The translations under genes were made by a program, and so were the position numbers. A stretch of DNA of 64,000 nucleotides from Bacteroidota bacterium (GTDB lineage Bacteria; Bacteroidota; Bacteroidia; CAIKAF01): contig JAEZEQ010000065.1 of NCBI GenBank assembly GCA_023432985.1, forward strand, positions 12 through 64,011, in the 5' to 3' direction. This document shows positions 9,014 to 42,176 of this stretch, one piece after another. How positions within the stretch are numbered: the stretch's first letter is position 1; each line of letters starts with the position of its first letter. The notes beneath the pieces were generated by a model. That model did not search any database. It was not told the DNA's origin and saw only the letters and a program-made list of their open reading frames with translations.

Positions 9014-9712
9014 ATGAAAATAGATATTAGCTTTAATGTTTTTACCGACGCCAATGGTGGCGACCCTGATAGTACAAGTCAGACCCTTCGAACTTATCAT
9101 ACATTATTATGGAGCAAAAGATTGCCAAATGGGAAGTATTTTGAATTGGATATGAATAAAAAGGGATATTATTTATGGCATAATTCAGAGCTTGGGAACT
9201 TTCATTTGGGGAGTGATTCGATAACGCATTCGTATAGAAATCAGAAAAGGAAACAATGGTTGATCAAACAAATTCCAAATGAGGTAGACGAACTTTTTGA
9301 TGCCGGTTCAACTATTGGAGCCTTTATTCTTTTTCCTAAAAATAAAATAGACAATAAGTTTACAATCAACCAAGCCCGTGGTGTTATTGGCTTAATTGAC
9401 GACAGGTTTGATTTAACCCTGGAGTGTATTCGGCTTTTTTACGATAGGCAAAAGAGCCCACTTTACGACACATTTTCAAGATACAAGGACTTCTTTGATT
9501 TATTTGAGACCTTTAGCGGATATGTCGATTATTTTTTGCTGAACGATTTACTTGATGCCAATGGAAATATAAAATTTTATATGCCTTTTGATCAATTCAG
9601 GACTAAGCCAACATTTCAGAACGTAGACGATTATTTGAAGTACAAAAATGGCGTAATGGATTTCATAAAAGCACGCAACAAGCGCATAGACGAGTATGCA
9701 AAGTCACTGTAG
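9014..9712 (+). CDS. Hypothetical protein with no recognisable domain, in a very AT-rich segment
   Basis: 232-aa clean ORF with AT-rich intergenic regions on both sides; no signal peptide or TM helix. Confidence 0.5.
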   Translation: MKIDISFNVFTDANGGDPDSTSQTLRTYHTLLWSKRLPNGKYFELDMNKKGYYLWHNSELGNFHLGSDSITHSYRNQKRKQWLIKQIPNEVDELFDAGSTIGAFILFPKNKIDNKFTINQARGVIGLIDDRFDLTLECIRLFYDRQKSPLYDTFSRYKDFFDLFETFSGYVDYFLLNDLLDANGNIKFYMPFDQFRTKPTFQNVDDYLKYKNGVMDFIKARNKRIDEYAKSL

Positions 9713-10040
9713 ATAAAATAGATTGTGCGCCAACTACCAATTTTGGTTAAATTGCTCCAATCTGCTAAATTCGTACAAATTTAGCAAGAGCCTTGAAACC
9801 AATCTTATTTTATCTGCCATGTAGTAAATATCCAAAACCTTGTAAAGGATTTAATCGAATTAAATTTACTTCCAATGTGAATTTTTAAAGGTATAATTAT
9901 TTATATTATGAGCAGTTTTTATGAAGGCTGCATATGCGGACAAAGAGAATTTTATAGGAGAGTTAGTATACAAAATGGTGATAATAAGAATTGAAATTGT
10001 AATTTAGAAACCTGAAAATAAACGAAAAGACAAATACGAA

Positions 10041-11828
10041 ATGAGCTTAAATACACAATCACTGCAACCCGTTATCAACTTCCTTTGGACAGTTGCGGAT
10101 GATGTTTTGGTAAATACCTACCAAAAAGGAAAATACAAAGATGTTATCCTGCCAATGGTGGTTATTCGCAGACTGGACTTGCTTTTAGAACCCACCAAAG
10201 AACAGGTTTTAAAGACTTTCAATGAATACAAATCCAAACTTCAAAACTTGGACAGCTTGCTGACCAACAGCAAACACGGTTCTGGTTTGGCATTTTACAA
10301 TACTTCAAAGTTTACTCTGAAAAAACTGCTTGACGACCCGAAAAATCTGCGGAGCAATTTTGAAAATTACCTGAATGGCTTTTCTGAAAATGTGCAGGAC
10401 ATCATCAAACAATTTAAATTCAGGAATGAAATTGAAACCTTGGACGAAGCAGACATTCTGTTTTCATTGATTGAAAAATTCTGTTCTCCGAAAGTGGAAT
10501 TACACCCCGACAAGTTGCCACCCTTGGCAATGGGTTATGTATATGAAGATTTGGTAAGACGATTTAACGAAGAAAACAACGAAGAAGCTGGAGAACACTT
10601 TACGCCAAGGGAAATCATTGATTTGATGACGCACCTTGTTTTCTTGCCGGTGAAAGACAAAATTAAGCAAGGAACTTATTTGATTTACGACCCTTGTGTG
10701 GGTAGCGGTGGAATGCTCACCATTGCCAAAAACTTTTTGCTCAATCCAGACGGACTGATTAAAAGCAATGCCACCGTTCATTTATACGGACAGGAAAGCA
10801 CGCCTTTCATTTATGCGACTTGCAAAAGCGATATGCTGATAAAAGGCGAAGACCCCGACAAAATTGCGTATGGCAGCACCTTGAGTGCTTATGGTTTTGA
10901 CAAAGATTTGAAGTTTGACTTCATGCTTACCAATCCGCCTTATGGAAAGACCTGGGCACCTGATAAAAAAGCATTAGGCATTGGCCCCAAAGGTGCCATC
11001 ATTGACAAACGCTTTATGCTGAAAGGCAGCTACAAAGAAGAAGCCGTTACCAGCCGTGTGAATGACGGACAGTTGATGTTTGTATTGCACATGCTTAGCA
11101 AAATGAAAGATACCGAACTCGGTAGCCGTATTGCCTCGGTTCATAATGGTTCGGCTTTGTTTACAGGTGATGCAGGACAAGGCGAAAGCGAAATTCGCAA
11201 ATACATCATCGAAAACGATTTGTTGGAAGCTATTGTAGCATTACCCAACGATATGTTTTACAATACGGGCATTCCAACCTACATTTTCCTTTTTACCAAC
11301 CGAAAAGCCAAAAACCGAAAAGGCAAAGTGCAATTGATAAATGCTACTTCCGAAAAATTTTATTACAAAATGCGGAAGCCATTAGGCAAAAAACGTGTTG
11401 AATTTTCATCAGAACATATTCCTGTAATTGAGAAAATGTTTTTAAATTTTGAAGAAAATGAATACAGCAAAATATTTGATAATGAAGATTTCGGGTATGC
11501 ACAAATAACAGTGCACCGACCTTTGAAAGACGAGAAAGGCAAAATTGTAACCGACAGTAAAGGCAAACCAAAGCCCGACCCAAAACTAAAGAACACCGAA
11601 AACATTCCGTTGAAAGAAGATATACAGGAATTTTTTGAACGTGAAGTGCTACCTTTTGCTCCTGATGCTTGGTGGGAAAAGAAAGATACCAAAATTGGCT
11701 ATGAAATAAACTTTGCCAAATACTTCTATAAACACCAACCTCCTCGTCCTCTGTCAGAAATTGCCAAAGACATTTTTGCCATTGAGCAGGAAACAGACGG
11801 CTTATTAAAGGATATTGTAAAAGGATGA
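10041..11828 (+). CDS. hsdM: Type I restriction-modification system DNA methyltransferase subunit HsdM (N6-adenine)
   Basis: Motif I DPCVGSGGML; motif IV LTNPPYGKTW; HsdM-type N-terminal domain (LWTVADDVL); 595 aa. Confidence 0.92.
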   Translation: MSLNTQSLQPVINFLWTVADDVLVNTYQKGKYKDVILPMVVIRRLDLLLEPTKEQVLKTFNEYKSKLQNLDSLLTNSKHGSGLAFYNTSKFTLKKLLDDPKNLRSNFENYLNGFSENVQDIIKQFKFRNEIETLDEADILFSLIEKFCSPKVELHPDKLPPLAMGYVYEDLVRRFNEENNEEAGEHFTPREIIDLMTHLVFLPVKDKIKQGTYLIYDPCVGSGGMLTIAKNFLLNPDGLIKSNATVHLYGQESTPFIYATCKSDMLIKGEDPDKIAYGSTLSAYGFDKDLKFDFMLTNPPYGKTWAPDKKALGIGPKGAIIDKRFMLKGSYKEEAVTSRVNDGQLMFVLHMLSKMKDTELGSRIASVHNGSALFTGDAGQGESEIRKYIIENDLLEAIVALPNDMFYNTGIPTYIFLFTNRKAKNRKGKVQLINATSEKFYYKMRKPLGKKRVEFSSEHIPVIEKMFLNFEENEYSKIFDNEDFGYAQITVHRPLKDEKGKIVTDSKGKPKPDPKLKNTENIPLKEDIQEFFEREVLPFAPDAWWEKKDTKIGYEINFAKYFYKHQPPRPLSEIAKDIFAIEQETDGLLKDIVKG

Positions 11829-11947
11829 TAAATATAAACTATTTAAAAGCGAAACGCCCCCTTGCTGGAGGCGTCAGACCAAAGATGCTATCTTTAGTGT
11901 TGTTCTTGGATGCAAATTTAATGAAATAAAATTTTAATTTCCAAACG

Positions 11948-12568
11948 ATGTCTGAAAAAAAAGAAAGAGTTGTAGCTTATATCGATGGTTTTAATCTCTA
12001 TTTTGGCATGAGAGAAGCGGGATTTGACCAGTGCAGATGGTTGAATGTAAAAGAATTGGTAAGTAGTTTGTTAAAACCTAATCAGGAATTAGTTGGTGTA
12101 AAATATTTTACAAGCAGAGTAAGTAATAACCCGGACAAACAAAAAAGACAATCTACCTATATTGATGCGTTGGAAAGTACAGGAGCGGAAATTTTTTATG
12201 GTAATTATCAGGATGGCTCAGAAGAATGTAAACGTTGCGGACATGTTTGGCGCACTGCCAAAGAAAAAATGACGGATGTAAATATTGCCACCGCAATTAT
12301 AGTAGATGCTTATAAAAACGAATACGACATGGCCATGCTTATTTCGGGTGATAGTGATTTAACACCACCCATTAAGGCTGTGCATAGCTTATTTACAGAT
12401 AAAAGAGTGTTTATAGCTTTTCCTCCCAAACGACACAATAGCTCTATGGCATTGGTAGCCAAAGGCTCCATGATGATAGGCAGAAAAAAACTGGTAGATG
12501 CGCAGTTTGATGATGAAGTCATAAGCAAAACAGGATTCAAACTTAAAAGGCCAACGGAATGGAAATAA
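11948..12568 (+). CDS. NYN/PIN-like domain protein (predicted RNase fold) with a CxxC-H insertion, inserted between hsdM and hsdS
   Basis: VAYIDGFNLYFG is the NYN N-terminal acidic motif. LISGDSDLTP is the second acidic motif. CKRCGHVW is a Zn-knuckle-like insert. 206 aa. The 3' end overlaps the hsdS start by 10 nt. Confidence 0.6.
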   Translation: MSEKKERVVAYIDGFNLYFGMREAGFDQCRWLNVKELVSSLLKPNQELVGVKYFTSRVSNNPDKQKRQSTYIDALESTGAEIFYGNYQDGSEECKRCGHVWRTAKEKMTDVNIATAIIVDAYKNEYDMAMLISGDSDLTPPIKAVHSLFTDKRVFIAFPPKRHNSSMALVAKGSMMIGRKKLVDAQFDDEVISKTGFKLKRPTEWK

Positions 12569-13830
12569 TGGAATCGAGACATACAAAAACCGCTTGGTTG
12601 GGTGAAGTGCCGTCTCATTGGGAAATAAAAAGACTTGGTGGTTTGTTTGAGGAAAGAAATGAAATCGTTTCTGAAAATGATTATGCGCCATTATCAGTAA
12701 CTATGAAAGGCATAGTTCCCCAATTAGAAAGCGCAGCAAAAACTATGCATGTTGATAACAGAAAAAAAGTTTGCGTTGGAGATTTTGCAATAAACAGTAG
12801 AAGTGACAGAAGAGGTTCTGGTGGCTTATCTTTTTATGAGGGATCTGTTTCTATCGTGAATACTGTTTTAAAGCCTAGTAAGTTCTACGTTCATGAGTAT
12901 ACTCACTACTTACTTACCAATAAACTGTTTCAAGATGAATACTATGCTAAAGGCAAAGGAATAGTTGCCGACATGTGGTCAACAAGATTTTCAGAAATGA
13001 AAACAATTTATCTTCCTGTTCCGCCCAAAGACGAGCAAGACGAAATTGTGCAATACATCAAAGCACAAGAAGAAAAGATAAACCTGTTTATACAAAAGAA
13101 GCAACGATTTATTGAGTTGTTGAAGGAGCAGAGGCAGAGAGTGATAACACTTGCGGTAACTAAAGGAATTAAAAATGAACAGTTAAAAGATAGTCAAATA
13201 GATTGGCTTGGTGAAATTCCTAAAAGTTGGGAAAGGACTGCATTAAAAAGACTAGTTAAAATAAAAATTACTGATGGCCCTCACGAAAGCCCTGTTTTTG
13301 CAGATGAAGGAATTCCGTTTGTGTCAGCAGAAGCATCTGTGAATGGGAGAATAGACCTAAATAGAAAGCGTTGTGATATTTCTAAAGAATTGCATGAGGA
13401 ATATTGTAAAAAGGCAAAAGCAGAATTTGGCGATATTTTAATGGTTAAATCAGGCTCAACTACAGGAAAAATTGCAATTGTAGACTTTCATGATGAATTC
13501 AGCATTTGGTCACCACTAGCACTAATACGACCAAATGAAAGTATTAACAATGAATTTCTTTTTTATAGTTTGTCATCAAATTACTTTCAAAAACAAGTTC
13601 AATTAAACTGGTCTTTTGGAACGCAACCAAATATTGGAATGGGTAAAATTGAACAATTAATTGTTTTGTATCCCAATTCACTTGAAGAACAAAAGCAAAT
13701 CGTATCACACATAAAAACCGAAACCGCCACCTTAGACACTGCCATAGCCAAAGCCGAAAGGGAAATTGAACTTATTCGGGAATACAAGGAAGCTATGATA
13801 GCTGAGGCGGTGATGGGGAAAAGAAAATAA
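12559..13830 (+). CDS. hsdS: Type I restriction-modification system specificity subunit HsdS (two target recognition domains)
   Basis: Two variable TRDs separated by, and ending with, conserved coiled-coil regions (IYLPVPPKDEQDEIVQYI...; LEEQKQIVSHIKTETATLDTAIAKAEREIELIREYKEAMIAEAV); 423 aa. Confidence 0.88.
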   Translation: MEIMESRHTKTAWLGEVPSHWEIKRLGGLFEERNEIVSENDYAPLSVTMKGIVPQLESAAKTMHVDNRKKVCVGDFAINSRSDRRGSGGLSFYEGSVSIVNTVLKPSKFYVHEYTHYLLTNKLFQDEYYAKGKGIVADMWSTRFSEMKTIYLPVPPKDEQDEIVQYIKAQEEKINLFIQKKQRFIELLKEQRQRVITLAVTKGIKNEQLKDSQIDWLGEIPKSWERTALKRLVKIKITDGPHESPVFADEGIPFVSAEASVNGRIDLNRKRCDISKELHEEYCKKAKAEFGDILMVKSGSTTGKIAIVDFHDEFSIWSPLALIRPNESINNEFLFYSLSSNYFQKQVQLNWSFGTQPNIGMGKIEQLIVLYPNSLEEQKQIVSHIKTETATLDTAIAKAEREIELIREYKEAMIAEAVMGKRK

Positions 13831-13834
13831 ATTG

Positions 13835-14077
13835 ATGCCAATGGAGAAAAATAAAATACCAGCCGTTTTTAAAGAGGACTTACAAAAGTTACTCCAAGCC
13901 ATTAATGAAATGGAACCGATTGAAAAAGGGGAAAGACTTTGTAAATTTTGTTCTAAGGTTATTTCATTGGAAAATATTCAACTAATTATTCCAAGACAAG
14001 CAAACACTTTTGATTTCATCTGTGACAGCCCCGTTTGTGTGGAAGAGTATAACCGCAAAAAAGAAATTAAGAAATGA
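13835..14077 (+). CDS. Small Cys-rich (CxxC...Cx4C) putative zinc-ribbon protein
   Basis: 80 aa; CKFC and CDSPVC pairs. It starts 5 nt after the hsdS stop, and its stop overlaps the next start (ATGA). Confidence 0.45.
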   Translation: MPMEKNKIPAVFKEDLQKLLQAINEMEPIEKGERLCKFCSKVISLENIQLIIPRQANTFDFICDSPVCVEEYNRKKEIKK

Positions 14078-16626
14078 ATAAATTAGTTGAATTCATACTC
14101 ATTTACATTCCGCTTTCAGCTTTACTGGTTTTAGCAGGAATATTTTTAGGCGGTGAGGTTTGGGCAAAAGGTAAAGTTGTTTTAGGCGACATACTCAAGT
14201 TTTTTGGCTGGGCTGGAAGTAGTGTAAGAAAACTGAGTGTAAAAAGCGAGTATGAGGGAACTATCAATTCGATAATTCAAGACTATAATAAAAACTTTGA
14301 AAACCCAATTTTGCCCAATTGTAAAATAGAATGGGTTACACCAGAAAATCAACGAAACATTCTGAGAGAAGGCGAAGCAATCATTTGTTTGAGCTTTGAT
14401 AAAAAAGACCACAACCTTAACTTTTATAATGCCACTTTAAATTTTGTTCAAACTGGATTAATCGCAAAAGCAAAGGACTATTTGAACAAGTCATCATCAA
14501 AGGCAATTGACTTACTTACAACTCACATAATTTTAAGAAACAACCGAAAAGAAGTTCTTACAACTTTCCGTAAAAAACTAACTGAATTTGATGATGAGAC
14601 TAAAAAGGAGTTTGAAACACTTGCTCCAACAAACGACAAAGGACTTTTCCTAAATATTCTATTGCCCGAATTTCATTTTTACGGTGAACTCATAGACACT
14701 TTACCGCCAAGTTCAGAATACAATACCGAAGCAAACGGTTTGTTTCATTGGTTCAAAGAATTGGCAACAAGAGAGTTTGACGAAAGAACCAATCTCAAAT
14801 ACATTTCAAAAAATTTAAAGGTTGGTGTAATACTCGTTGGTAAAGATGAAACTTGGGAAAGCCAAGGTGCAGCAGCATACACAAAATGGGCTGACTATTA
14901 CGCTACTGAAAACTACAATTCTGTTTATGTTTTGGCAAGAGGCAGCAACGGCTATGAAAGAGCAACAACAGTTACTAAAATCTTAACCCACTTAAAAGGA
15001 TTTGACCAAATAAATAAAAACCCAAAAATTAAATGTGTTTCGGCAGAAGGTCAGGAATATATTGTTACATGTTATTCTCTTAGACCAAACAAAGCAACGA
15101 TTGCGTATTTGGCTTGGGAAAGTTTCAAAGAACACAATGCAAATGGAAGTTTAGTTCCTGCAATTGTTGATAGCGTTCAAAAAGAAACGGTGGTAGTAAA
15201 CGCATTCGGATTGAAGTTTGAACTTTCAAACAATTTACTTTCTGATATAGAAATTTCAGATGCACGTAAAGTTTTTAAAGTTGAAGATGAGCTTTATTTG
15301 ACCATTGCAGAGTTTGACAGCGACAAACAACACTTAGTTCTATCAAACAAAGGAACAGTTTCCGACCCTAAACATTTTATTGAAGCCGTATTAAATGAAG
15401 ACAAAGTTTACGCTTGTAAAGTTGAAAGAGTTCAGATTGATAAACAAGGATTACAAAGCGGATTGAAAGTTTCAACACCCGAATTGAAACATTGGGTTTA
15501 CATTCCAAAATTTAAAGCGACACCGAGTAGGTTTCTCGACCTGACAACTAAGTTTCCATCAGGAACGGAAGTAAGTGTGATAATTGATAACTACTCTTCT
15601 TTTTCTTCCAACTTCGTGGGCTATTTAGAAACACTAACTGACCCATGGGAAAGCATCACCTTTAATAAACTACAGCCACATGATATTTTAAATGTGACAG
15701 TAAAGCAGATTAATGAATTTTCAGTAATCTGTGAGATTGAAGAAGGTCTTGAATGTGGCTTTTCAAAACAAGAAATTTCATGGAAACCTGAGGAATGCAA
15801 TACTTCAAAATTTAAAGTTGACGATAAGATTGAAGTAAAAGTCGTTGAAATTGATACAGACAAAAAGCGAATTGATGTTTCGATTAAACGACTTTCTAAA
15901 ACACCTGAATTGGAATACTTTGATGCGAATTCAAACAAGGTTGTTGAAGTTGAAATTGCCAAAGTTGTTCCTGAAAAGGGCATAGCAGTAAAATATCCAG
16001 GAAGCACAAATACTGGATTTATTCATTGGTTTGAAATTGGTTATGGTTCGGTTGGCAGGTTTGAAAACATCTACAAACAAGGTGATAAGATTAAAGCAGT
16101 TGTATCAGAATTTGATGCTGAGAAGAACAGTCTAAAGTTTAGTATCAAAAGACAATTCACTCACCAATTTGACGAATGGGCTGCTGCAATTGATGATAAC
16201 GCCTCATTAAAAGGAAAAGTAATTGGCTACTTTGAAAATGGAGCACAGATTGAATTAACTCAAAACGGCTTTACCGTTCAGGCGTTTATTTTGAGAAAGT
16301 TTGTTTCCAATTTCGCTTTTGTTGAAAGTGGCGATTTGCCACATTACTTGCAAATTGGAGAAACCTTTCATTTCTACATTCTTGAAATTAATGAAGACCG
16401 CAAAACCATTTCATTAATAAGAACAGAATATTTAGAACAATCAGAAGAGCCGAATTATGGCGAAAAAATCAAAGTAAAGTATGTGAAGGAAAACCACTCA
16501 AAGGGTTACTTCTATTCTGATGAATTGGAAGGCTGGACAAGCATTCCTGAAAAAGGTATAAAGTTAGGTTCAACAATAGAAGTAATACCAGTTTCACATT
16601 CAACAGGCGAGTATGAAATTGTTTAA
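14074..16626 (+). CDS. Large membrane-anchored protein: one N-terminal TM helix, about 400 aa of unknown globular region, then three or more tandem S1/OB-fold nucleic-acid-binding domains
   Basis: N-terminal hydrophobic helix (FILIYIPLSALLVLAGIFLGG). S1-type domain C-terminal signatures recur at KVDDKIEVKVVEIDTDKKRIDVSIKRL, KQGDKIKAVVSEFDAEKNSLKFSIKRQ and FHFYILEINEDRKTISLIRTEY. No P-loop or known nuclease motif recognised. 850 aa. Sits between hsdS and hsdR on the same strand with gaps of 11 nt or less. Confidence 0.6.
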   Translation: MNKLVEFILIYIPLSALLVLAGIFLGGEVWAKGKVVLGDILKFFGWAGSSVRKLSVKSEYEGTINSIIQDYNKNFENPILPNCKIEWVTPENQRNILREGEAIICLSFDKKDHNLNFYNATLNFVQTGLIAKAKDYLNKSSSKAIDLLTTHIILRNNRKEVLTTFRKKLTEFDDETKKEFETLAPTNDKGLFLNILLPEFHFYGELIDTLPPSSEYNTEANGLFHWFKELATREFDERTNLKYISKNLKVGVILVGKDETWESQGAAAYTKWADYYATENYNSVYVLARGSNGYERATTVTKILTHLKGFDQINKNPKIKCVSAEGQEYIVTCYSLRPNKATIAYLAWESFKEHNANGSLVPAIVDSVQKETVVVNAFGLKFELSNNLLSDIEISDARKVFKVEDELYLTIAEFDSDKQHLVLSNKGTVSDPKHFIEAVLNEDKVYACKVERVQIDKQGLQSGLKVSTPELKHWVYIPKFKATPSRFLDLTTKFPSGTEVSVIIDNYSSFSSNFVGYLETLTDPWESITFNKLQPHDILNVTVKQINEFSVICEIEEGLECGFSKQEISWKPEECNTSKFKVDDKIEVKVVEIDTDKKRIDVSIKRLSKTPELEYFDANSNKVVEVEIAKVVPEKGIAVKYPGSTNTGFIHWFEIGYGSVGRFENIYKQGDKIKAVVSEFDAEKNSLKFSIKRQFTHQFDEWAAAIDDNASLKGKVIGYFENGAQIELTQNGFTVQAFILRKFVSNFAFVESGDLPHYLQIGETFHFYILEINEDRKTISLIRTEYLEQSEEPNYGEKIKVKYVKENHSKGYFYSDELEGWTSIPEKGIKLGSTIEVIPVSHSTGEYEIV

Positions 16627-16636
16627 TAGAGTTTAA

Positions 16637-19600
16637 ATGAAAACAGACACAACAGAAAAAGGATTAGAAGCCCATATTACACAGCACTTGTGTTTGGTGA
16701 ATGCTTTTGAAGAAAGGCATTTCAGTAATTACAATCGTGTGGATTGTGTAGATGAGGATTTGCTTTTTAATTTTCTGCAAGCTACACAGGAAATGGAAGT
16801 AATTAAATTGCAAACCATTCACGGGAGCAATTACCGAAGCAAGGTATTATATCGCTTAAACAATCAAATCAAAACCTTTGGCATTATTGAGGTTTTACGC
16901 AAAGGCATTACGGACAATAACATCAAACTCAAACTGTTTTTTGATAAACCCGTTTCCAACCTAAACGAAAAAGATTTAGCCCTTTACAACCAAAACATTT
17001 TTTCAGTTACAAGGCAAGTGCATTACAGCACACAAAATGAAAACTCGCTGGATTTGGTTGTTTTCATCAATGGTTTGCCCATCATCACGTTTGAACTAAA
17101 AAACGAACTCACCAAGCAAACAGTAAAAGATGCCATTAAGCAATATAAAACCAGTCGTGACCCAAGAGAAGAACTGTTTCGCTTAGGTCGTTGTATGGTT
17201 CACTTTGCAGTGGATAGCGAGCAAATTTGGATGGCAACCCATTTGAAAGGCGAAAACACATACTTTTTACCATTCAACAAAGGTTACAACAACGGAGCAG
17301 GAAATCCGCCTAATCCAAACGGCATCAAATCCGATTACCTCTGGAAAGACATTTTAACCAAAGACCGTTTAACCAACATCATTCAGAACTATGTTCAGTT
17401 GTTTGAAGAAGAAACGGAAAAGATTTTGCGTGACGGAAAGGTTAAAAAGGAGAAAGTAAAGAAACTGATTTTCCCACGCTATCATCAAATTGATGCCGTT
17501 GATAAACTCCTAAGCAATGCCAAAGAAAACGGAGCAGGAAAACGCTATTTAATTCAGCATTCGGCAGGTTCAGGCAAATCAAATTCCATTTCTTGGTTGG
17601 CTCATCAATTGGTTGGCTTGTTTGACAAGAACAACGAGAACACCGTTTTTGATACTGTAATTGTGGTAACCGACCGTAAAGTGTTGGATGCTCAAATCCG
17701 TAACAACATCAAACAGTTTGAGCAAGTAAAAGGAGTTGTGGAAGCCATTACCGAAGGTAGTAAGCAACTGAAAACTGCTTTAGAAGAAGGCAAGAAAATC
17801 ATCATTACCACCATTCAGAAATTCCCATACATCGTTAATGAAATAGGAGAACTGCCCGGAAATAAGTTTGCCATCATCATTGACGAAGCACACAGTAGCC
17901 AAAGCGGAAACACCGCAGGAAAGCTGAATGAAACTTTGGCTAAAGACTTTGAAAAAGTGCAGGTGGATGATGACGAATTTGTGTTTGTGGACAAAGACCA
18001 GTATGACGAACTGACTTCGGAAGACTTGGTAGTGGATATTGTGAAAGGCAGAAAGATGCTGACCAATGCCAGTTACTTTGCTTTTACAGCAACACCAAAA
18101 AACAAAACGCTTGAACTTTTCGGAGAGAAATACAACGACAACGGAAAGGAGAAATTCAGGGCATTTCATCTTTACTCCATGAAACAAGCCATAGAGGAAA
18201 ATTTCATTTTGGATGTATTGCAGAATTACACCACTTACCAAAGTTATTACGCTTTGCTAAAGAAAATTGAAGACGACCCTGCATACGATAAAAACAAGGC
18301 ACAGAAGAAACTGAAAATATTTGTTGAAAGTCATACTCATGCCATTGCCAAAAAAACAGCTTTGATAATTGACCACTTTATGGATAATGTAATCCGTAAA
18401 GCGAAAATCAACGGTTTGGCAAAAGCAATGGTCGTTACGAGCAGTCGCAGAAATGCCGTGAAATACAAAAAGGCATTTGACCAATATTTAGCAGAAACAG
18501 GAAACCCATACAAGGCAATCGTAGCATTTTCAGGAGAAATAGACGGACAAACCGAAGCTGCATTAAATCATTTTTCAAGTGCTGCCATTCCAGACGAGTT
18601 TAAGAAATCGGAATACCGTTTTTTGATTGTGGCAAACAAATATCAAACAGGATTTGACCAACCGCTTTTACATACCATGTATGTTGACAAGAAATTGGGA
18701 GGCGTAAATGCCGTTCAAACCCTTTCAAGACTGAATAGAACAACCGCAGGAAAGAAAGACACATTTGTTTTAGACTTTGCCAATGATGCAGACGAAATCA
18801 AGAAATCGTTTGACCCATTTTTTGAAACCACCATTTTAGGAGAAGCAACAGATCCGAATAAACTTTTTGACTTACAAAGTTCATTAGATGCTTTTCAGGT
18901 TTACACACCCGAACAAGTGCAGGAGTTTTCGCAAAAGATGGTTACGAATGTTCCTGTGGACCAATTGCACAGCATTTTAGATGCAGCAGCCGAAGTATTC
19001 AGAACTTCATTAACAGAAGAACAGCAAGACGACTTTAGAGCAAAATGCAAGACTTATGTTCGCTTGTATGTTTTCCTTGCTCAAATCGTTCCGTTTGTAA
19101 ATCCATATTTGGAAAGACTGTATTTGTTCCTAAACCACTTGCAAAATAAACTAGGCAAACAGCGTGACGAAGATTTGGCACAAGGTATTTTGGACAATAT
19201 AGACATGGACAGTTACCGTCTTCAAAAAGAAGGAGAATTTAATATCCAGTTGCAACAAGGTGATGAGTTAAAGCCAATTCCAACAGACATGAGAGGCGGA
19301 GCAACCGAGCCTGAAATGGAATATTTATCCAACATTGTAAAAGCATTTAACGACCGCTTTGGGACACAGTTCACTAACGAAGACAAGGTTAAAAAAATGA
19401 CTGAGGACTTAATGGCGGACGTTGCACAAGATGCAGAATTTGCGAACGCTTTTAAACATTCAGACGAACAGAACGCTAAAATCACTTTTGAAGAAGTATT
19501 GAAACGAAAACTTATTGACCACATTGAAACCAACTTTGAAGTATTTAAAGAGTTCAACGACAACAAAGAATTTCGTGACTTCTTCGCAGGGACAATGTTC

Positions 19601-19645
19601 AAAATAATGCAAAAAGACTTTTTAAGATTTAACGCAAACAAATAA
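16637..19645 (+). CDS. hsdR: Type I restriction enzyme endonuclease/translocase subunit HsdR
   Basis: N-terminal PD-(D/E)xK nuclease (DLVVFINGLPIITFELK). SF2 helicase Walker A (HSAGSGKSNS). DEAH box (IIIDEAHSSQ). 1002 aa. Confidence 0.92.
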   Translation: MKTDTTEKGLEAHITQHLCLVNAFEERHFSNYNRVDCVDEDLLFNFLQATQEMEVIKLQTIHGSNYRSKVLYRLNNQIKTFGIIEVLRKGITDNNIKLKLFFDKPVSNLNEKDLALYNQNIFSVTRQVHYSTQNENSLDLVVFINGLPIITFELKNELTKQTVKDAIKQYKTSRDPREELFRLGRCMVHFAVDSEQIWMATHLKGENTYFLPFNKGYNNGAGNPPNPNGIKSDYLWKDILTKDRLTNIIQNYVQLFEEETEKILRDGKVKKEKVKKLIFPRYHQIDAVDKLLSNAKENGAGKRYLIQHSAGSGKSNSISWLAHQLVGLFDKNNENTVFDTVIVVTDRKVLDAQIRNNIKQFEQVKGVVEAITEGSKQLKTALEEGKKIIITTIQKFPYIVNEIGELPGNKFAIIIDEAHSSQSGNTAGKLNETLAKDFEKVQVDDDEFVFVDKDQYDELTSEDLVVDIVKGRKMLTNASYFAFTATPKNKTLELFGEKYNDNGKEKFRAFHLYSMKQAIEENFILDVLQNYTTYQSYYALLKKIEDDPAYDKNKAQKKLKIFVESHTHAIAKKTALIIDHFMDNVIRKAKINGLAKAMVVTSSRRNAVKYKKAFDQYLAETGNPYKAIVAFSGEIDGQTEAALNHFSSAAIPDEFKKSEYRFLIVANKYQTGFDQPLLHTMYVDKKLGGVNAVQTLSRLNRTTAGKKDTFVLDFANDADEIKKSFDPFFETTILGEATDPNKLFDLQSSLDAFQVYTPEQVQEFSQKMVTNVPVDQLHSILDAAAEVFRTSLTEEQQDDFRAKCKTYVRLYVFLAQIVPFVNPYLERLYLFLNHLQNKLGKQRDEDLAQGILDNIDMDSYRLQKEGEFNIQLQQGDELKPIPTDMRGGATEPEMEYLSNIVKAFNDRFGTQFTNEDKVKKMTEDLMADVAQDAEFANAFKHSDEQNAKITFEEVLKRKLIDHIETNFEVFKEFNDNKEFRDFFAGTMFKIMQKDFLRFNANK

Positions 19646-19803
19646 TGCCAATGCTACAGTCTCTCTATTGCAAGTATTATGATGTTTTTCTTGTAAGCAA
19701 AATGCTCGACGAAAGCACAAATCTATTCATCAGGCTATAAACCGATAAAAATTTCTACTGTTGTAGATCTACTTTCATTTTCACACAATCCATTTTCATT
19801 TTT

Positions 19804-19873
19804 ACAAAAATCCCCCTCCCTCACTCTCACTTTTTGATAGGGAAATGAGAGTGGAGAGTATTTACTTTGTATT
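19804..19873. repeat. Copy 2 of the ~65-bp direct repeat with internal inverted repeat (CACTCTCA-N16-TGAGAGTG), downstream of hsdR
   Basis: Same orientation and about 85% identity to 5611-5672; 14.19 kb between the copies. Confidence 0.8.
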
Positions 19874-20038
19874 CCAGGCATTGACAAAAAATACATCAAT
19901 TTATACAGTCTTATACACTGTAAATCGAAATGCAGGTTTCTACGATAAATGCTCTCTCTAACCTTTTGTGATTATCAACCCGGAAGCCTGCTTTTTTCAT
20001 ATATTTTATTTAGTAGTTTTACGGTCTAATTTAATACT

Positions 20039-21646
20039 ATGAAAAAGATCTCTGCAAAAATCTTCTTATTAGCTTTAGCTATAGGAGTTAACCAACACGT
20101 GTCGGCGCAAATGAGCAGCTGGGCACACAAAAAATCGTTTAAAATTACCGAAGTCTCGGGGAATAATCTGAGCAATTATCAACTTCCAATAAGCATCAAT
20201 ACCCAGGCGCTTATTGCTGCGAACGAATTAAATGCAGACGGAAGTGATTTGCGTTTTAGTACGAATTGTCTGGGCAATACGCTTTTGTCTTATTGGATAG
20301 AATCGGGTCTGAATACGCCTAATACAACCGTATGGGTTAAAATTAACCATATTAATGCCATGGACGATTTAGAGCTTTTTATGTTTTACGGCAATCCGAT
20401 CGCTCCCGCACAAAGCAGCATTCCTGCCACTTTTGTCGGAAATTTTCCGGGTATTGCCTATGGAGCAGATACCCTTTCGGGTGGGGTCACCAATAGTCAG
20501 CGTGGATATCGTTTTTCTCCGAATGAACCTATTTTGGTGACTGATTTTGCCAAATATGAACCCAATGGCAGCATTCGGGAAGTGAATTTATTCGATTTTA
20601 ACAGTCAAAATATTCTACGTAGCGAAAACGTTTCCGGTCCCGCCGCCCAATTCAGCAGCCAATCTCTTAGTTCGCCCATTTGGCTTACACAAGGTACAGA
20701 GTACATAATCTCCATGTTTAATGGGTCCACCGATGGATATTATTTTGGCAACCTTGGTCAAAGTTCGCCACATATCACTTACTTAGAAATGCGCTATTGT
20801 AATGGCTGTTTGTCAACAACTATGCCTACAACTACTTTGGCAAATATGCATTATGGATTAGTGGATTTTTTATATTATTCCCGCAATCATCCTAACGTTA
20901 CAGCACCACTTGTGGTAGAATTACCAAACTTTCAGGCTCAGATTTTGGGAGCAGCAGTGCATTGTTCCAACGATTCCCTCTTATTGGAAGCACAGGCAAT
21001 TGGCGGAGTGGCACCTTATTTTTATGCGTGGACTTCGACCGGTACTTTTTCGGGCAATGCAACAGATCAAATTATATGGGATAAATCGTCTCAACAGGCC
21101 GATTATAGTCTAACCATTACAGATGCCGCCGGTTGCTCCTCCACCGTTTCGGCCACTGTACCCATTCATACGGCTCTATTAATAGATGCCGGGGAAGATT
21201 TAGGTGCCTGCCAAGGTTCTATGGTAACCCTTAATGCAAGTGGTCCGGATAATATCACCTGGAGTGGTGGCGTACAAAACGGGGTTGCTTTTGAAGCCCA
21301 ACAAAGTCAAACCTACTATGCATACGGCCTAGATCTCAATGGATGTGTAAGTGAAGACAGCTTGTTCTTGAGTGTGTATGATTGCACCGATTTGGATAAA
21401 TTACAGGCTCATAACCTGCATATATACCCCAATCCCGCACAATCGACCCTGACCATTCAAGGCATAGAAAGTCAGATGGAAAATATTTTACTTCTCGATG
21501 CTTCGGGCAAAACCCTTGAACAAAAATCTATAACCCATACAGGCGAAATGAAATGGGATATTTCGAATTTGGCAGAAGGCCTTTATTATTTCAGAATAAA
21601 TTGGAAAAATGGCACTGCTTATACCATACAGGTAATTAAAAAATAA
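20039..21646 (+). CDS. Secreted DUF2341-like domain protein with T9SS C-terminal sorting domain
   Basis: Signal peptide. N-terminal pattern characteristic of DUF2341 (ISINTQALIAANELNADGSDLRF...LSYWIESG...TTVWVKI). C-terminal HIYPNPAQSTLTIQG...YYFRINW...IQVIKK is a Por sorting domain. Confidence 0.7.
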   Translation: MKKISAKIFLLALAIGVNQHVSAQMSSWAHKKSFKITEVSGNNLSNYQLPISINTQALIAANELNADGSDLRFSTNCLGNTLLSYWIESGLNTPNTTVWVKINHINAMDDLELFMFYGNPIAPAQSSIPATFVGNFPGIAYGADTLSGGVTNSQRGYRFSPNEPILVTDFAKYEPNGSIREVNLFDFNSQNILRSENVSGPAAQFSSQSLSSPIWLTQGTEYIISMFNGSTDGYYFGNLGQSSPHITYLEMRYCNGCLSTTMPTTTLANMHYGLVDFLYYSRNHPNVTAPLVVELPNFQAQILGAAVHCSNDSLLLEAQAIGGVAPYFYAWTSTGTFSGNATDQIIWDKSSQQADYSLTITDAAGCSSTVSATVPIHTALLIDAGEDLGACQGSMVTLNASGPDNITWSGGVQNGVAFEAQQSQTYYAYGLDLNGCVSEDSLFLSVYDCTDLDKLQAHNLHIYPNPAQSTLTIQGIESQMENILLLDASGKTLEQKSITHTGEMKWDISNLAEGLYYFRINWKNGTAYTIQVIKK

Positions 21647-21664
21647 ATAAAATAATTAAGAATG

Positions 21665-21692
21665 AGGCCGGCTTAAATGCCGGCTTTTTTTA
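21665..21692. terminator. Bidirectional intrinsic terminator
   Basis: GGCCGGC(ttaaat)GCCGGC followed by T7. Confidence 0.75.
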
Positions 21693-22031
21693 TGCGTTGA
21701 ATTGCTCCAGAGTTTCGAAAATGGGGAGTAAGCCCTTCCCTCGCTCACTCAGGTGATACTCTATATGCAAAGGCTTTTGGGCAATGATTACCTTTACTAA
21801 AATACCGTTTTCTTCCAATTCTTTTAATGCTACCGATAAAGATTGCTTATTGGCATCGGGTATTTGGCGCAAGAGCGTGTTGAAACGAAGCGGCCCATCT
21901 ATGGCCAACTTGTAAATGCGCGCTTTCCATTTTCCCGAAAGCGTTTTCAATAAACCCTCCGCAGGACAATCTGTGACAGGTTCCGGCTTGGGAAGTGTGT
22001 GTTTGGCCTTTTGATTTTCCATCTTGTTCAA
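21690..22031 (-). CDS. HxlR family winged-helix transcriptional regulator
   Basis: CPAEGLLKTLSGKWKARIYKLAIDGPLRFNTLLRQIPDANKQSLSVALKELEENGIL is the HxlR HTH signature; 113 aa. Confidence 0.8.
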   Translation of the reverse strand: MNKMENQKAKHTLPKPEPVTDCPAEGLLKTLSGKWKARIYKLAIDGPLRFNTLLRQIPDANKQSLSVALKELEENGILVKVIIAQKPLHIEYHLSERGKGLLPIFETLEQFNA

Positions 22032-22147
22032 AGATACAAAATTCGGCCGATAGCATAAGTGAGCCCAAAATGGGTAGTCTGCTTTTTCTGACTTATTGAT
22101 TATGCAAATAATTGTACTGACCTTTGTGTAAGCTTATATAGAAATAG

Positions 22148-23152
22148 ATGAAACAGATACTTAAAATAATAGGTGTTACTTTCATTTTTCTGAGTATATC
22201 GGGAAAAATGGAGGCACAATTAAACACAAAAAATAATATGGAAAACAAAGAAACAAATCCGCTTTTATGTGATATAGAAAGTGGATCATGCGAAATGCCG
22301 GGTCAGCATACAGCGGCCGATCATCAAGCCCAATTAAACGGAACAAAGCCCGTGAAAATTATATATTTCACAGATCCGATTTGTTCGTCTTGCTGGGGCA
22401 TAGAACCACAATTGAAGAAATTGAAATTGGAATACGGACACCTAATTGACATCGAATACAGAATGGGCGGATTGCTTCCCAATTGGGATTATAATTCGGG
22501 CGGTATTAGTAAACCCGCCGATGTAGCCGTACATTGGGAAGAAGCAGGGGCTTACTACGATATGCCTATAGATGGCGATGTTTGGTACGTCGATCCTTTG
22601 GAATCTTCTTATCCGCCTTCTATTGCCGTAAAAGCGGCCGAATTGCAAAGTGAAGAAAAAGCAGTGTATTTTATGCGCAAATTGCGCGAGGGACTTTTTC
22701 TGAGCAAAAAGAATATAGCGAAATGGGAAAATATAGCCGATGCTGCGAAGGAAGCCGGACTTGATGTAGGGCAATTGGAGAAAGATTATGAAAGTGCGGG
22801 TAAAATGATGTTTCAGGCAGATTTGAACCTGGCAAGGAAAATGGGCGTAAGGGGTTTTCCAACTATTTTTCTGCTTAACGAAGACGGAATGCAGGAATTG
22901 GTATATGGATCAAGACCCTATGATGCCTACGAAAATGCCATTAAAAAACTGCATCCTGAGGCCGTGAAGAATAAATATGCAAACGATTATGCACATTTGT
23001 TTTCTCAATTCGACACCATGACTGCAAAAGAGTTTTCAGTATTAAGTGGCATGCCCCGAAATGAAGTGGAGGGCTATTTGAACAAGTTGGTCAGCGAAGG
23101 AAAACTAAAACGATTTGATTCGAAAAACGGAGGCCTTTGGTCGACTAAATAA
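22148..23152 (+). CDS. DsbA-family thioredoxin-fold protein (secreted)
   Basis: Signal peptide; CxxC in the context FTDPICSSCWGIEP; 334 aa. Confidence 0.7.
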   Translation: MKQILKIIGVTFIFLSISGKMEAQLNTKNNMENKETNPLLCDIESGSCEMPGQHTAADHQAQLNGTKPVKIIYFTDPICSSCWGIEPQLKKLKLEYGHLIDIEYRMGGLLPNWDYNSGGISKPADVAVHWEEAGAYYDMPIDGDVWYVDPLESSYPPSIAVKAAELQSEEKAVYFMRKLREGLFLSKKNIAKWENIADAAKEAGLDVGQLEKDYESAGKMMFQADLNLARKMGVRGFPTIFLLNEDGMQELVYGSRPYDAYENAIKKLHPEAVKNKYANDYAHLFSQFDTMTAKEFSVLSGMPRNEVEGYLNKLVSEGKLKRFDSKNGGLWSTK

Positions 23153-42104: not shown

Positions 42105-42176
42105 GGCCCATTCGTCTATCGGTTAGGACATCAGATTTTCATTCTGAAAAGAGGGGTTCGATTCCCCTATGGGCTA
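42105..42176 (+). tRNA. tRNA-Glu (anticodon UUC)
   Basis: Manual fold: acceptor GGCCCAT/ATGGGCT; D-stem GTCT/GGAC; anticodon stem TCAGA/TCTGA with loop TTTTCAT; T-arm AGGGG-TTCGATT-CCCCT; discriminator A; CCA not encoded. The overlapping minus-strand ORF 42139-42414 is spurious. Confidence 0.8.

Follow-up and report, generated by a model that had tools for sequence, protein, structure and literature searches.

In EcoprrI, the prrC gene occupies the slot between hsdS and hsdR of the restriction-modification (R-M) operon. Genes embedded in type I R-M, BREX, DISARM and Hma loci are often defence systems, and seven of them have been validated experimentally; HEC-09 gave no protection against the phages tested in the same study (Payne et al., 10.1101/2024.01.29.577857). 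Furthermore, multi-S1 and OST-HTH modules have been predicted to act as the nucleic-acid-recognising parts of TERNS3 conflict systems (Kaur et al. 2021, PMC8195603). Here we analysed a stretch of 64,000 nucleotides from a Bacteroidota bacterium (assembly GCA_023432985.1, contig JAEZEQ010000065.1, positions 12 to 64,011), hereafter the window, in which a two-gene cassette encoding a small zinc-ribbon protein and a large membrane-anchored protein lies between hsdS and hsdR. We read this cassette as a self-contained, horizontally mobile pair that landed inside a type I R-M operon and that is most likely an undescribed anti-phage or anti-mobile-element conflict system, a reading in which we place about as much belief as doubt. 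Its likeness to PrrC and RloC is confined to genomic position, that is, to a foreign unit embedded in an hsd operon. Unlike them, the cassette has no ABC-ATPase or anticodon-nuclease domain according to Pfam, NCBIfam and PADLOC, and it is a two-gene unit found mostly outside hsd operons, whereas PrrC is almost exclusively embedded (10.1101/2024.01.29.577857).

The first gene of the cassette (13835..14077, + strand) encodes an 80-residue protein with a CxxC...Cx4C zinc ribbon. The second (14074..16626, + strand) encodes an 850-residue protein and starts inside the ATGA that overlaps the stop codon of its partner (14071-14079, ...AAG AAATGAAT...). The small open reading frame (ORF) follows hsdS after 4 nucleotides (13825-13837, ...AAATAA ATTG ATG...), with an alternative in-frame TTG at 13832, and the large ORF ends with a TAA at 16624-16626, leaving a spacer of 10 nucleotides before the ATG of hsdR. 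An earlier reading made from the letters of the window (the sequence-only reading) had described the same layout, with an 80-residue ORF, an ATGA at 14074 and an 850-residue ORF between hsdS and hsdR. The ORF calls agree with it in everything except the last spacer, which it had given as 11 nucleotides. A terminator scan detected no terminator-like sites on the + strand between hsdS, the cassette and hsdR. A sigma-70 promoter scan returned fewer sites than were found in shuffled sequences, Bacteroidota promoters being different from the consensus scanned. The 80-residue protein had 84 homologues, every one of them unnamed or labelled hypothetical, and the 850-residue protein had 120 homologues among the matches listed, mostly full length (about 850 residues) and ranging from 95% down to 26% identity. 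Judged by this conservation, both ORFs are real, conserved genes.

Look-ups of exact proteins, together with a scan of the GTDB species genomes, supplied 22 other cassette loci, in which we ran tblastn searches with seven proteins encoded at the window locus. In all 22, the zinc-ribbon gene was found directly upstream of the large gene, even where the identity of the large protein fell to 31%, and the same arrangement was seen in further individually annotated loci beyond this set. The gene pair is translationally coupled and strictly co-inherited, and the cassette is a genuine two-gene unit, as had been claimed. It is also not a fusion artefact of hsdR and hsdS domains, since it has no match to an hsd family and most of its loci lack hsd genes.

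The other genes of the window locus do not follow the pair. Homologues of the NYN-domain protein, HsdS and the DUF6994 protein were detected in none of the 22 other loci, and the earlier suggestion that the large protein signals to the upstream NYN RNase was abandoned on this ground, together with a functional link to the DUF6994 gene. HsdR or HsdM was present in just two of the 22 (L017 and L019), at positions that vary relative to the cassette. Overall, type I R-M genes lie next door in three of about 17 distinct loci (the window, L017 and L019). These counts bear on the view that the cassette is a dedicated R-M accessory, either a regulator or an anti-restriction or restriction-alleviation factor for the flanking hsd genes. 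Its place in the window, between hsdS and hsdR with probable co-transcription, would fit such a role, as would the fact that at seven loci (window included) a gene of R-M type or for a DNA methyltransferase lies only a few genes away. However, R-M is missing at most loci and, where it occurs, its type varies (type I, type IIG, orphan-like N6_N4 methyltransferases). The cassette is moreover not fixed in position relative to hsd genes, and the protein gives no sign of DNA mimicry or methyltransferase control. We therefore consider the specialised anti-restriction or regulatory role, which the sequence-only reading had left open, to be very improbable indeed.

Cassette copies were found in Bacteroidota, Spirochaetota, Gemmatimonadota and Verrucomicrobiota metagenome-assembled genomes (MAGs), in surroundings that differ widely. 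Copies that are 88 to 94% identical to that of the window occupy unrelated sites, next to an M20 peptidase gene (L008), DUF6544 and Cdd1 genes (L009), an IS91-family transposase (L010) or an integrase (L012). In Epilithonimonas (L001), the cassette belongs to an island with integrase, HTH_17, VapE and Toprim genes beside mnmE, and in Sphingobacterium (L033) to a conjugative transposon with RteC, ArdA, a reverse transcriptase and a PRTase-CE module. Another island (L030) combines an integrase and a resolvase with PDDEXK_13/REase-ARP, DUF4238 and EMARD_N genes. Other neighbours are an MmeI-type IIG enzyme and a DUF1016 nuclease near the cassette of a Treponema MAG (L003), an HNH-like gene and an N6_N4 methyltransferase in Paludibacteraceae (L024), SymE toxins, AAA_21-RloB and EMARD_N in Elizabethkingia (L032), and a UvrD helicase pair in a Flavobacterium psychrophilum MAG (L014). 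When 92 neighbours were pooled, the top families were ResIII, DEAD, SWI2_SNF2, phage integrase and type I R-M domains; AIPR, DUF4420, AEP-TOTE, TraO and a Y2 transposase were matched once each, and ordinary metabolic genes were present too. This pooled scan covers the top families, and the context evidence proper is the tally of individually annotated loci. The neighbourhoods show the pattern expected for cargo of defence islands or mobile elements. Homologues of the pair recurrently adjoin restriction, defence and mobile-element genes, which answers the question of recurrence that the sequence-only reading had raised. That the cassette is an autonomous, mobile, conflict-associated unit is, in our opinion, highly probable.

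Several of these loci have further features. Directly upstream of the F. psychrophilum cassette, a gene for a 655-residue protein is followed by one for a 629-residue UvrD-family helicase (5536-9391 of L014), which gives a Gabija-like layout. Locus L005 carries an archease-RtcB RNA-repair pair 3 kilobases downstream of the cassette (15449-17357) and an EcoEI-type HsdR 8 kilobases downstream (20687-22553); the presence of an RNA-repair system beside a putative RNA-targeting module may be no coincidence. L034 and L035 share the same cassette block of small unannotated genes (1-7300) in two assemblies, joined on the left to a glycoside hydrolase region or to an Mla/ferritin region, depending on the assembly, and the two flanks of one block indicate a mobile or recombining island. 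Two MAGs of one palsa study, assigned to Gemmatimonadetes and Spartobacteria, carry what is apparently the same element (L020 4179-6811 and L022 9714-12346), with identical tblastn statistics and the same downstream gene order, which reflects either recent transfer or mis-binning. Similarly, a MAG labelled Spirochaetales (L011 3378-6166) holds a copy 89% identical to the window protein, the other close relatives of which are from Bacteroidota, and here the choice is between a very recent inter-phylum transfer and a binning error.

We next turn to the large protein. It is anchored in the inner membrane through one N-terminal helix (residues ~5-27, 14086..14154, + strand; Kyte-Doolittle maximum 2.6), which is modelled as a helix, is the sole stretch above a Kyte-Doolittle value of 1.6 in the 850 residues, and corresponds to a hydrophobic N terminus in 35 of 35 aligned homologues. 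The single transmembrane helix of the sequence-only reading is thus confirmed, with no second hydrophobic segment. An amphipathic helix follows, up to about residue 43. The bulk of the protein is probably cytoplasmic, since positive charge is higher after the helix and RNA-binding domains would have no periplasmic substrate. The C-terminal part (residues ~358-850, 15145..16623, + strand) is an array of S1/OB-like barrels. S1 is the only Pfam family recognised in the protein, and its membership in the S1 superfamily is clear (PF00575, 86.2 bits against a cut-off of 22, E 2.1e-24, best stretch 533-605). On the AlphaFold2 model, the array comprises six barrels, at residues ~361-424, 445-518, 538-603, 623-690, 712-782 and 799-849; the array itself had been recognised earlier, as at least three domains. 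The full-length model reached a pLDDT of 86.6 and a pTM of 0.47, the latter being as expected because the barrels are arranged as beads on a string. A ZorB2 model gave the only PADLOC match (E 6.5e-4), over 50 residues inside barrel 4, and we rejected kinship with ZorB/MotB as spurious.

The tandem barrels make the large protein resemble ribosomal protein bS1 (RpsA) and other multi-S1 proteins such as Rrp5. S1 motifs are retained, with G-F-I-H in barrel 4 and the family consensus Y-I-H-K-S-x-I-S in barrel 5, and phmmer aligned the protein with bS1 chains at E 2.4e-22 (domains 3-5 of E. coli bS1). Unlike the large protein, bS1 has neither a transmembrane helix nor a 300-residue N-terminal module; it is soluble, consists of S1 repeats only and is a universal housekeeping protein, whereas the cassette is mobile, patchily distributed and paired with a zinc ribbon. 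The rpsA models match residues 345-820 only partially, at 116 bits, and all remain far below their cut-offs (TIGR00717, 116.1 bits against 577). Identity with bS1 is ruled out by these scores, the transmembrane helix, the N-terminal module and the patchy spread.

A broader form of this idea is that the cassette is a non-immune accessory factor of RNA metabolism, for instance a membrane-tethered RNA chaperone or organiser or a bS1 paralogue, that occurs sporadically and lies near defence genes by coincidence. Databases do name the homologues 'ribosomal protein S1' or 'S1 RNA-binding domain-containing protein', and at some loci the neighbours are housekeeping genes or, near the L005 cassette, RtcB and archease. 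The combination of an anchor with KH or S1 domains also recalls the scaffolds RNase Y, which has a transmembrane helix, a KH and an HD domain, and RNase E, which has an S1 domain and a membrane-targeting helix. The likeness goes as far as the inner-membrane tether joined to KH or S1 domains; family scans detected no HD or RNase E catalytic domain in the cassette, which also differs from these RNases in not being housekeeping. Set against a factor of this kind are the score of 116 instead of 577 bits, far under every rpsA cut-off, a patchy and horizontally shaped distribution with near-identical copies in unrelated contexts, the embedding in an R-M operon together with the recurrence next to integrases, transposases and restriction genes, and the obligate zinc-ribbon partner. 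We regard it as quite improbable.

Between the anchor and the barrels lies the N-module, which is conserved more strongly than the OB repeats. When residues 1-352 were modelled with AlphaFold2 from 24 diverse homologues, the pLDDT was 87.6 and the pTM 0.82, and the model divides the module into two subdomains. The first (residues 46-238, 14209..14787, + strand), a three-stranded sheet with a helical bundle, is the best-conserved region of the large protein and gave no convincing structural match. The second (residues 239-352, 14788..15129, + strand) has the topology beta-alpha-beta-alpha-beta-beta and, on the model, shares the fold of the Alba/Sac10b superfamily (Alba, Pop7/Rpp20, Rpp25, IF3-C-like). 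It differs from Alba proteins in having no Pfam Alba match at E <= 0.01, in its identity of only 14 to 18%, and in being part of a membrane protein, whereas Alba is a small stand-alone chromatin or RNA protein. Of the roughly 400 residues in which the sequence-only reading could assign no motif, residues 46-238 thus keep that description and residues 239-352 lose it. The N-module had no match in Pfam, NCBIfam, PHROGs or PADLOC, where generic S1 repeats alone were matched, and its profile gave a single insignificant match to PDB chains (E 0.045). We also considered a zincin-like protease for residues 46-238 and rejected it, as the superpositions were poor, HExxH is absent and H201 is not conserved. 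Several polar residues are conserved throughout the superfamily (N116, E199, E219, Y269 and Y285, plus D146 and R/K233) and could line a cryptic active site or form part of an interface.

The small partner starts with a helix-like segment (A-V-x-x-E-D-L...L), which precedes the zinc ribbon. We aligned 20 sequences, taking in the partners of very distant relatives (S1-, KH- and short-type), and found the four cysteines of CxxC...Cx4C and L20 to be invariant and A10, E14, D15 and P53 nearly so. No family match was returned for the 80-residue protein by Pfam, NCBIfam, PHROGs or PADLOC. Its profile retrieved only generic ribbons from PDB chains, at E > 0.1, and neither the Pfam scan nor the PDB search revealed a recognisable DNA-binding domain.

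The pair belongs to a much larger superfamily. We searched 1.84 billion representative proteins with a profile of residues 1-352 and recovered 1199 clusters (at 50% identity) with E <= 1e-3, of which 964 reached E <= 1e-10. The best 150 of the 1199 fall into length groups of ~340-375, 440-510, 600-690, ~770 and 800-870 residues, and the C termini differ accordingly in Pfam scans: forms of ~500 and ~670 residues carry NusA-like KH_5/KH_1 domains, a 607-residue form carries OST-HTH/LOTUS, and forms of ~770 residues have four S1 domains. Short forms consist of the N-module alone, with no C-terminal array. In all four classes (S1, KH, LOTUS and short), a small ORF overlaps or abuts the start of the large gene. 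It encodes 78 residues with CxxC...CCx4C in a short form (L037) and 82 residues with CxxC...Cx5CC in KH forms (L038/L039), and both align with the zinc-ribbon protein of the window, keeping the four cysteines. In the LOTUS form, the upstream ORF of 75 residues, with an overlap of 4 nucleotides, is known by position and not by sequence. The small upstream ORF is accordingly a four-cysteine zinc ribbon in the three classes of the four in which its sequence was read.

Since the N-module and the small upstream ORF are common to the classes, the constant system is the zinc-ribbon protein together with the protein made of transmembrane helix and N-module. The RNA-binding array is a swappable accessory, and the family core is the pair of N-module and zinc ribbon. 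This shifts the emphasis of the sequence-only reading, which had centred on the S1 array: the family is held together by its N-module, and arrays of S1 type can be exchanged for arrays of other kinds. The superfamily draws on the same set of domains (S1, LOTUS/OST-HTH) as the TERNS3 systems, by analogy rather than homology. TERNS3 modules, however, belong to multi-gene systems centred on NTPases, and the likeness extends neither to partners of the STAND, MoxR or vWA type nor to the anchor in the membrane, the Alba-like N-module or the zinc ribbon.

Members of the superfamily are also carried by phages. The temperate siphovirus Marinitoga camini virus 1 (KP836355.1; L036 4297-5519) encodes a minimal pair between its replication genes and terminase, in which the stop of a 70-residue CxxC...CxxC protein overlaps a 336-residue protein with a transmembrane helix and N-module only; both are annotated as hypothetical. 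A full-length S1-type cassette with 73% identity was found on an IMG/VR contig (L040, IMGVR_UViG_3300029622_000181, 1-10960), where it is located at the contig end and adjoins a TraQ-like gene. The same contig has genes for a large terminase, ParB_N, a PAPS-reductase-like protein and an amidoligase_2 and GATase_4 pair, which may be a DNA-modification module. In addition, a protein of a gut siphovirus (BFVD A0A8S5TTG3) superposes on the entire N-module with a TM score of 0.80. No full-length members were detected in PLSDB plasmids or INPHARED phages; apart from the short form of the Marinitoga virus, these collections gave only rpsA-like matches to the S1 part.

These copies raise the possibility that the large protein is a superinfection- or entry-exclusion factor at the cytoplasmic face of the inner membrane, which would bind incoming nucleic acid (an injected phage genome, conjugative single-stranded DNA or early transcripts) and block its establishment without killing the cell. 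A temperate phage, another phage contig and a conjugative transposon all carry the cassette, and exclusion genes are typical cargo of such elements. The protein combines a membrane anchor with folds that solely bind nucleic acids, Alba binding DNA and RNA, and OB and KH domains binding single-stranded DNA as well. However, S1, KH_5 and LOTUS are mainly RNA-binding domains, most tailed phages inject double-stranded DNA, and most copies lie in chromosomal islands and not in prophages, with one IMG/VR locus and none full length in INPHARED or PLSDB. Exclusion in this strict sense appears quite unlikely to us. As for the wider question, we lean somewhat towards a primary role in defence against, or exclusion of, phages and mobile elements, with strict exclusion counted in.

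If the cassette is a conflict system, its mode of action could be pictured as follows, on the understanding that no specific mechanism rises above the tentative. The swappable array would capture nucleic acid that the invader makes or injects, either RNA or some other single-stranded form, and the conserved N-module and the membrane anchor would deliver the output. This output might consist in membrane damage by clustered membrane helices (abortive infection), in sequestration of invader RNA at the membrane, or in a cryptic enzymatic activity. The zinc-ribbon protein, whose translation is coupled to that of the large protein, would act as a regulator or as an antitoxin-like partner. Extended to the whole superfamily, this becomes the speculative proposal, which we find possible and hold only loosely, that at least 1199 clusters represent two-component immune systems. 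In these, a membrane-anchored protein would detect invader RNA at the inner membrane through interchangeable S1, KH or LOTUS arrays, the N-module would be an effector of a new kind, acting as a cryptic RNase or by forming oligomers that disrupt the membrane, and the zinc ribbon would be an obligate gate.

The same architecture could serve mobile elements as an addiction or stabilisation module resembling a toxin-antitoxin system, with the main role of maintaining the island or operon that hosts it. The large protein would then be toxic, for example through sequestration of mRNA or competition with bS1, the zinc ribbon would neutralise it, and phage defence would be a side effect at most. A small gene located upstream of a larger one and coupled to it is the typical antitoxin-first layout. 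The strict co-occurrence of the pair, its presence in integrative elements, a conjugative transposon and prophages, and the SymE toxins that adjoin it in Elizabethkingia point in the same direction. With 850 residues, though, the large protein exceeds classical toxins by far in size and elaboration, and triggered immunity is a better fit for an RNA-binding array that is sensor-like and can be swapped. In the zinc-ribbon protein, moreover, no DNA-binding domain was recognised by which it could regulate its own expression; the border with abortive-infection systems is blurred in any case. On balance, we judge an addiction module unlikely.

Several observations weigh against a defence system as the explanation. 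The proposed function is drawn from genomic context, through a tally of individual loci. Four sets of loci (L005, L008, L031 and L034/L035) have housekeeping or unannotated surroundings. Embedding in an R-M operon is suggestive and not proof, because HEC-09, which is encoded in the same operon, gave no defence. Family scans recognised no effector domain, be it a nuclease, protease, NADase or pore-former, and N116, E199, E219, Y269 and Y285 fit no known catalytic signature. Finally, the cytoplasmic location of the bulk of the protein was deduced from charge distribution and domain logic only. With these points taken into account, the undescribed defence module of the sequence-only reading is still a reasonable interpretation.

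The pair also appears to be new. We found no credible match of either cassette protein to PADLOC-DB v2.0.0, which includes models for PrrC, Zorya, Kiwa and HEC systems and presumably the PDC candidates. Ten superfamily representatives and their partners (short, KH and LOTUS forms) had no PADLOC match either, nor did the zinc-ribbon partners and N-modules of the representatives match Pfam. The supplementary tables of 10.1101/2024.01.29.577857 do not mention the cassette or S1 proteins, and full-text literature searches yielded no published description of the family. We take the family to be new because no described family matched in the libraries searched, and this upholds the earlier statement that the cassette corresponds to no named defence family. 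Should it function in defence, a widespread and wholly uncharacterised family would join the prokaryotic immune repertoire, with an unusual logic in which a protein tethered to the membrane carries an RNA-binding 'reader' array that is modular and can be swapped, and contains no enzyme that can be recognised. Its modularity is a natural experiment on the exchange of RNA sensors over a constant output module, and regulation could be approached through the obligate zinc-ribbon partner. Public mis-annotation as 'ribosomal protein S1' or 'NusA-like' hides the family from surveys of defence islands and could mislead annotation. The cassette is a further worked example of the value of mining type I R-M operons for embedded genes, and it illustrates that a very large family can stand behind one of the rarer embedded cassettes, which abundance cut-offs overlook.

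The operon that hosts the cassette in the window is a type I R-M locus, with hsdM, hsdS and hsdR on one strand and short spacers. The genes follow one another on the + strand in the order hsdM (10041..11828; Pfam N6_Mtase and HsdM_N, PADLOC MTase_I 1e-235), NYN-domain gene (11948..12568; Pfam NYN), hsdS (12559..13830; Pfam Methylase_S, PADLOC Specificity_I 2e-98), the two cassette genes and hsdR (16637..19645; Pfam HSDR_N, SWI2_SNF2, ResIII and T1R_D3-like, PADLOC REase_I). The NYN-domain gene is the HEC-09 of PADLOC (E 1e-92); it sits between hsdM and hsdS and overlaps the start of hsdS by 10 nucleotides. As it is separate from the cassette beside it, the operon has two independent embedded units. 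Just upstream of hsdM lies a gene for a DUF6994 protein (9014-9712, + strand; Pfam E 1.2e-88), which had no match in PADLOC, NCBIfam or PHROG. No integrase or tRNA gene adjoins the R-M island, the only tRNA gene of the window being at 42105. The G+C content is 34 to 35% in the cassette and 37 to 40% over most of hsdM and hsdR, and it falls to 33 to 40% over the entire block from DUF6994 through the hsd genes and the cassette (window 8000-20000), compared to 40 to 48% in most of the wider flanking sequence. This dip is consistent with horizontal acquisition of the whole R-M island, of which the DUF6994 gene may be another passenger.

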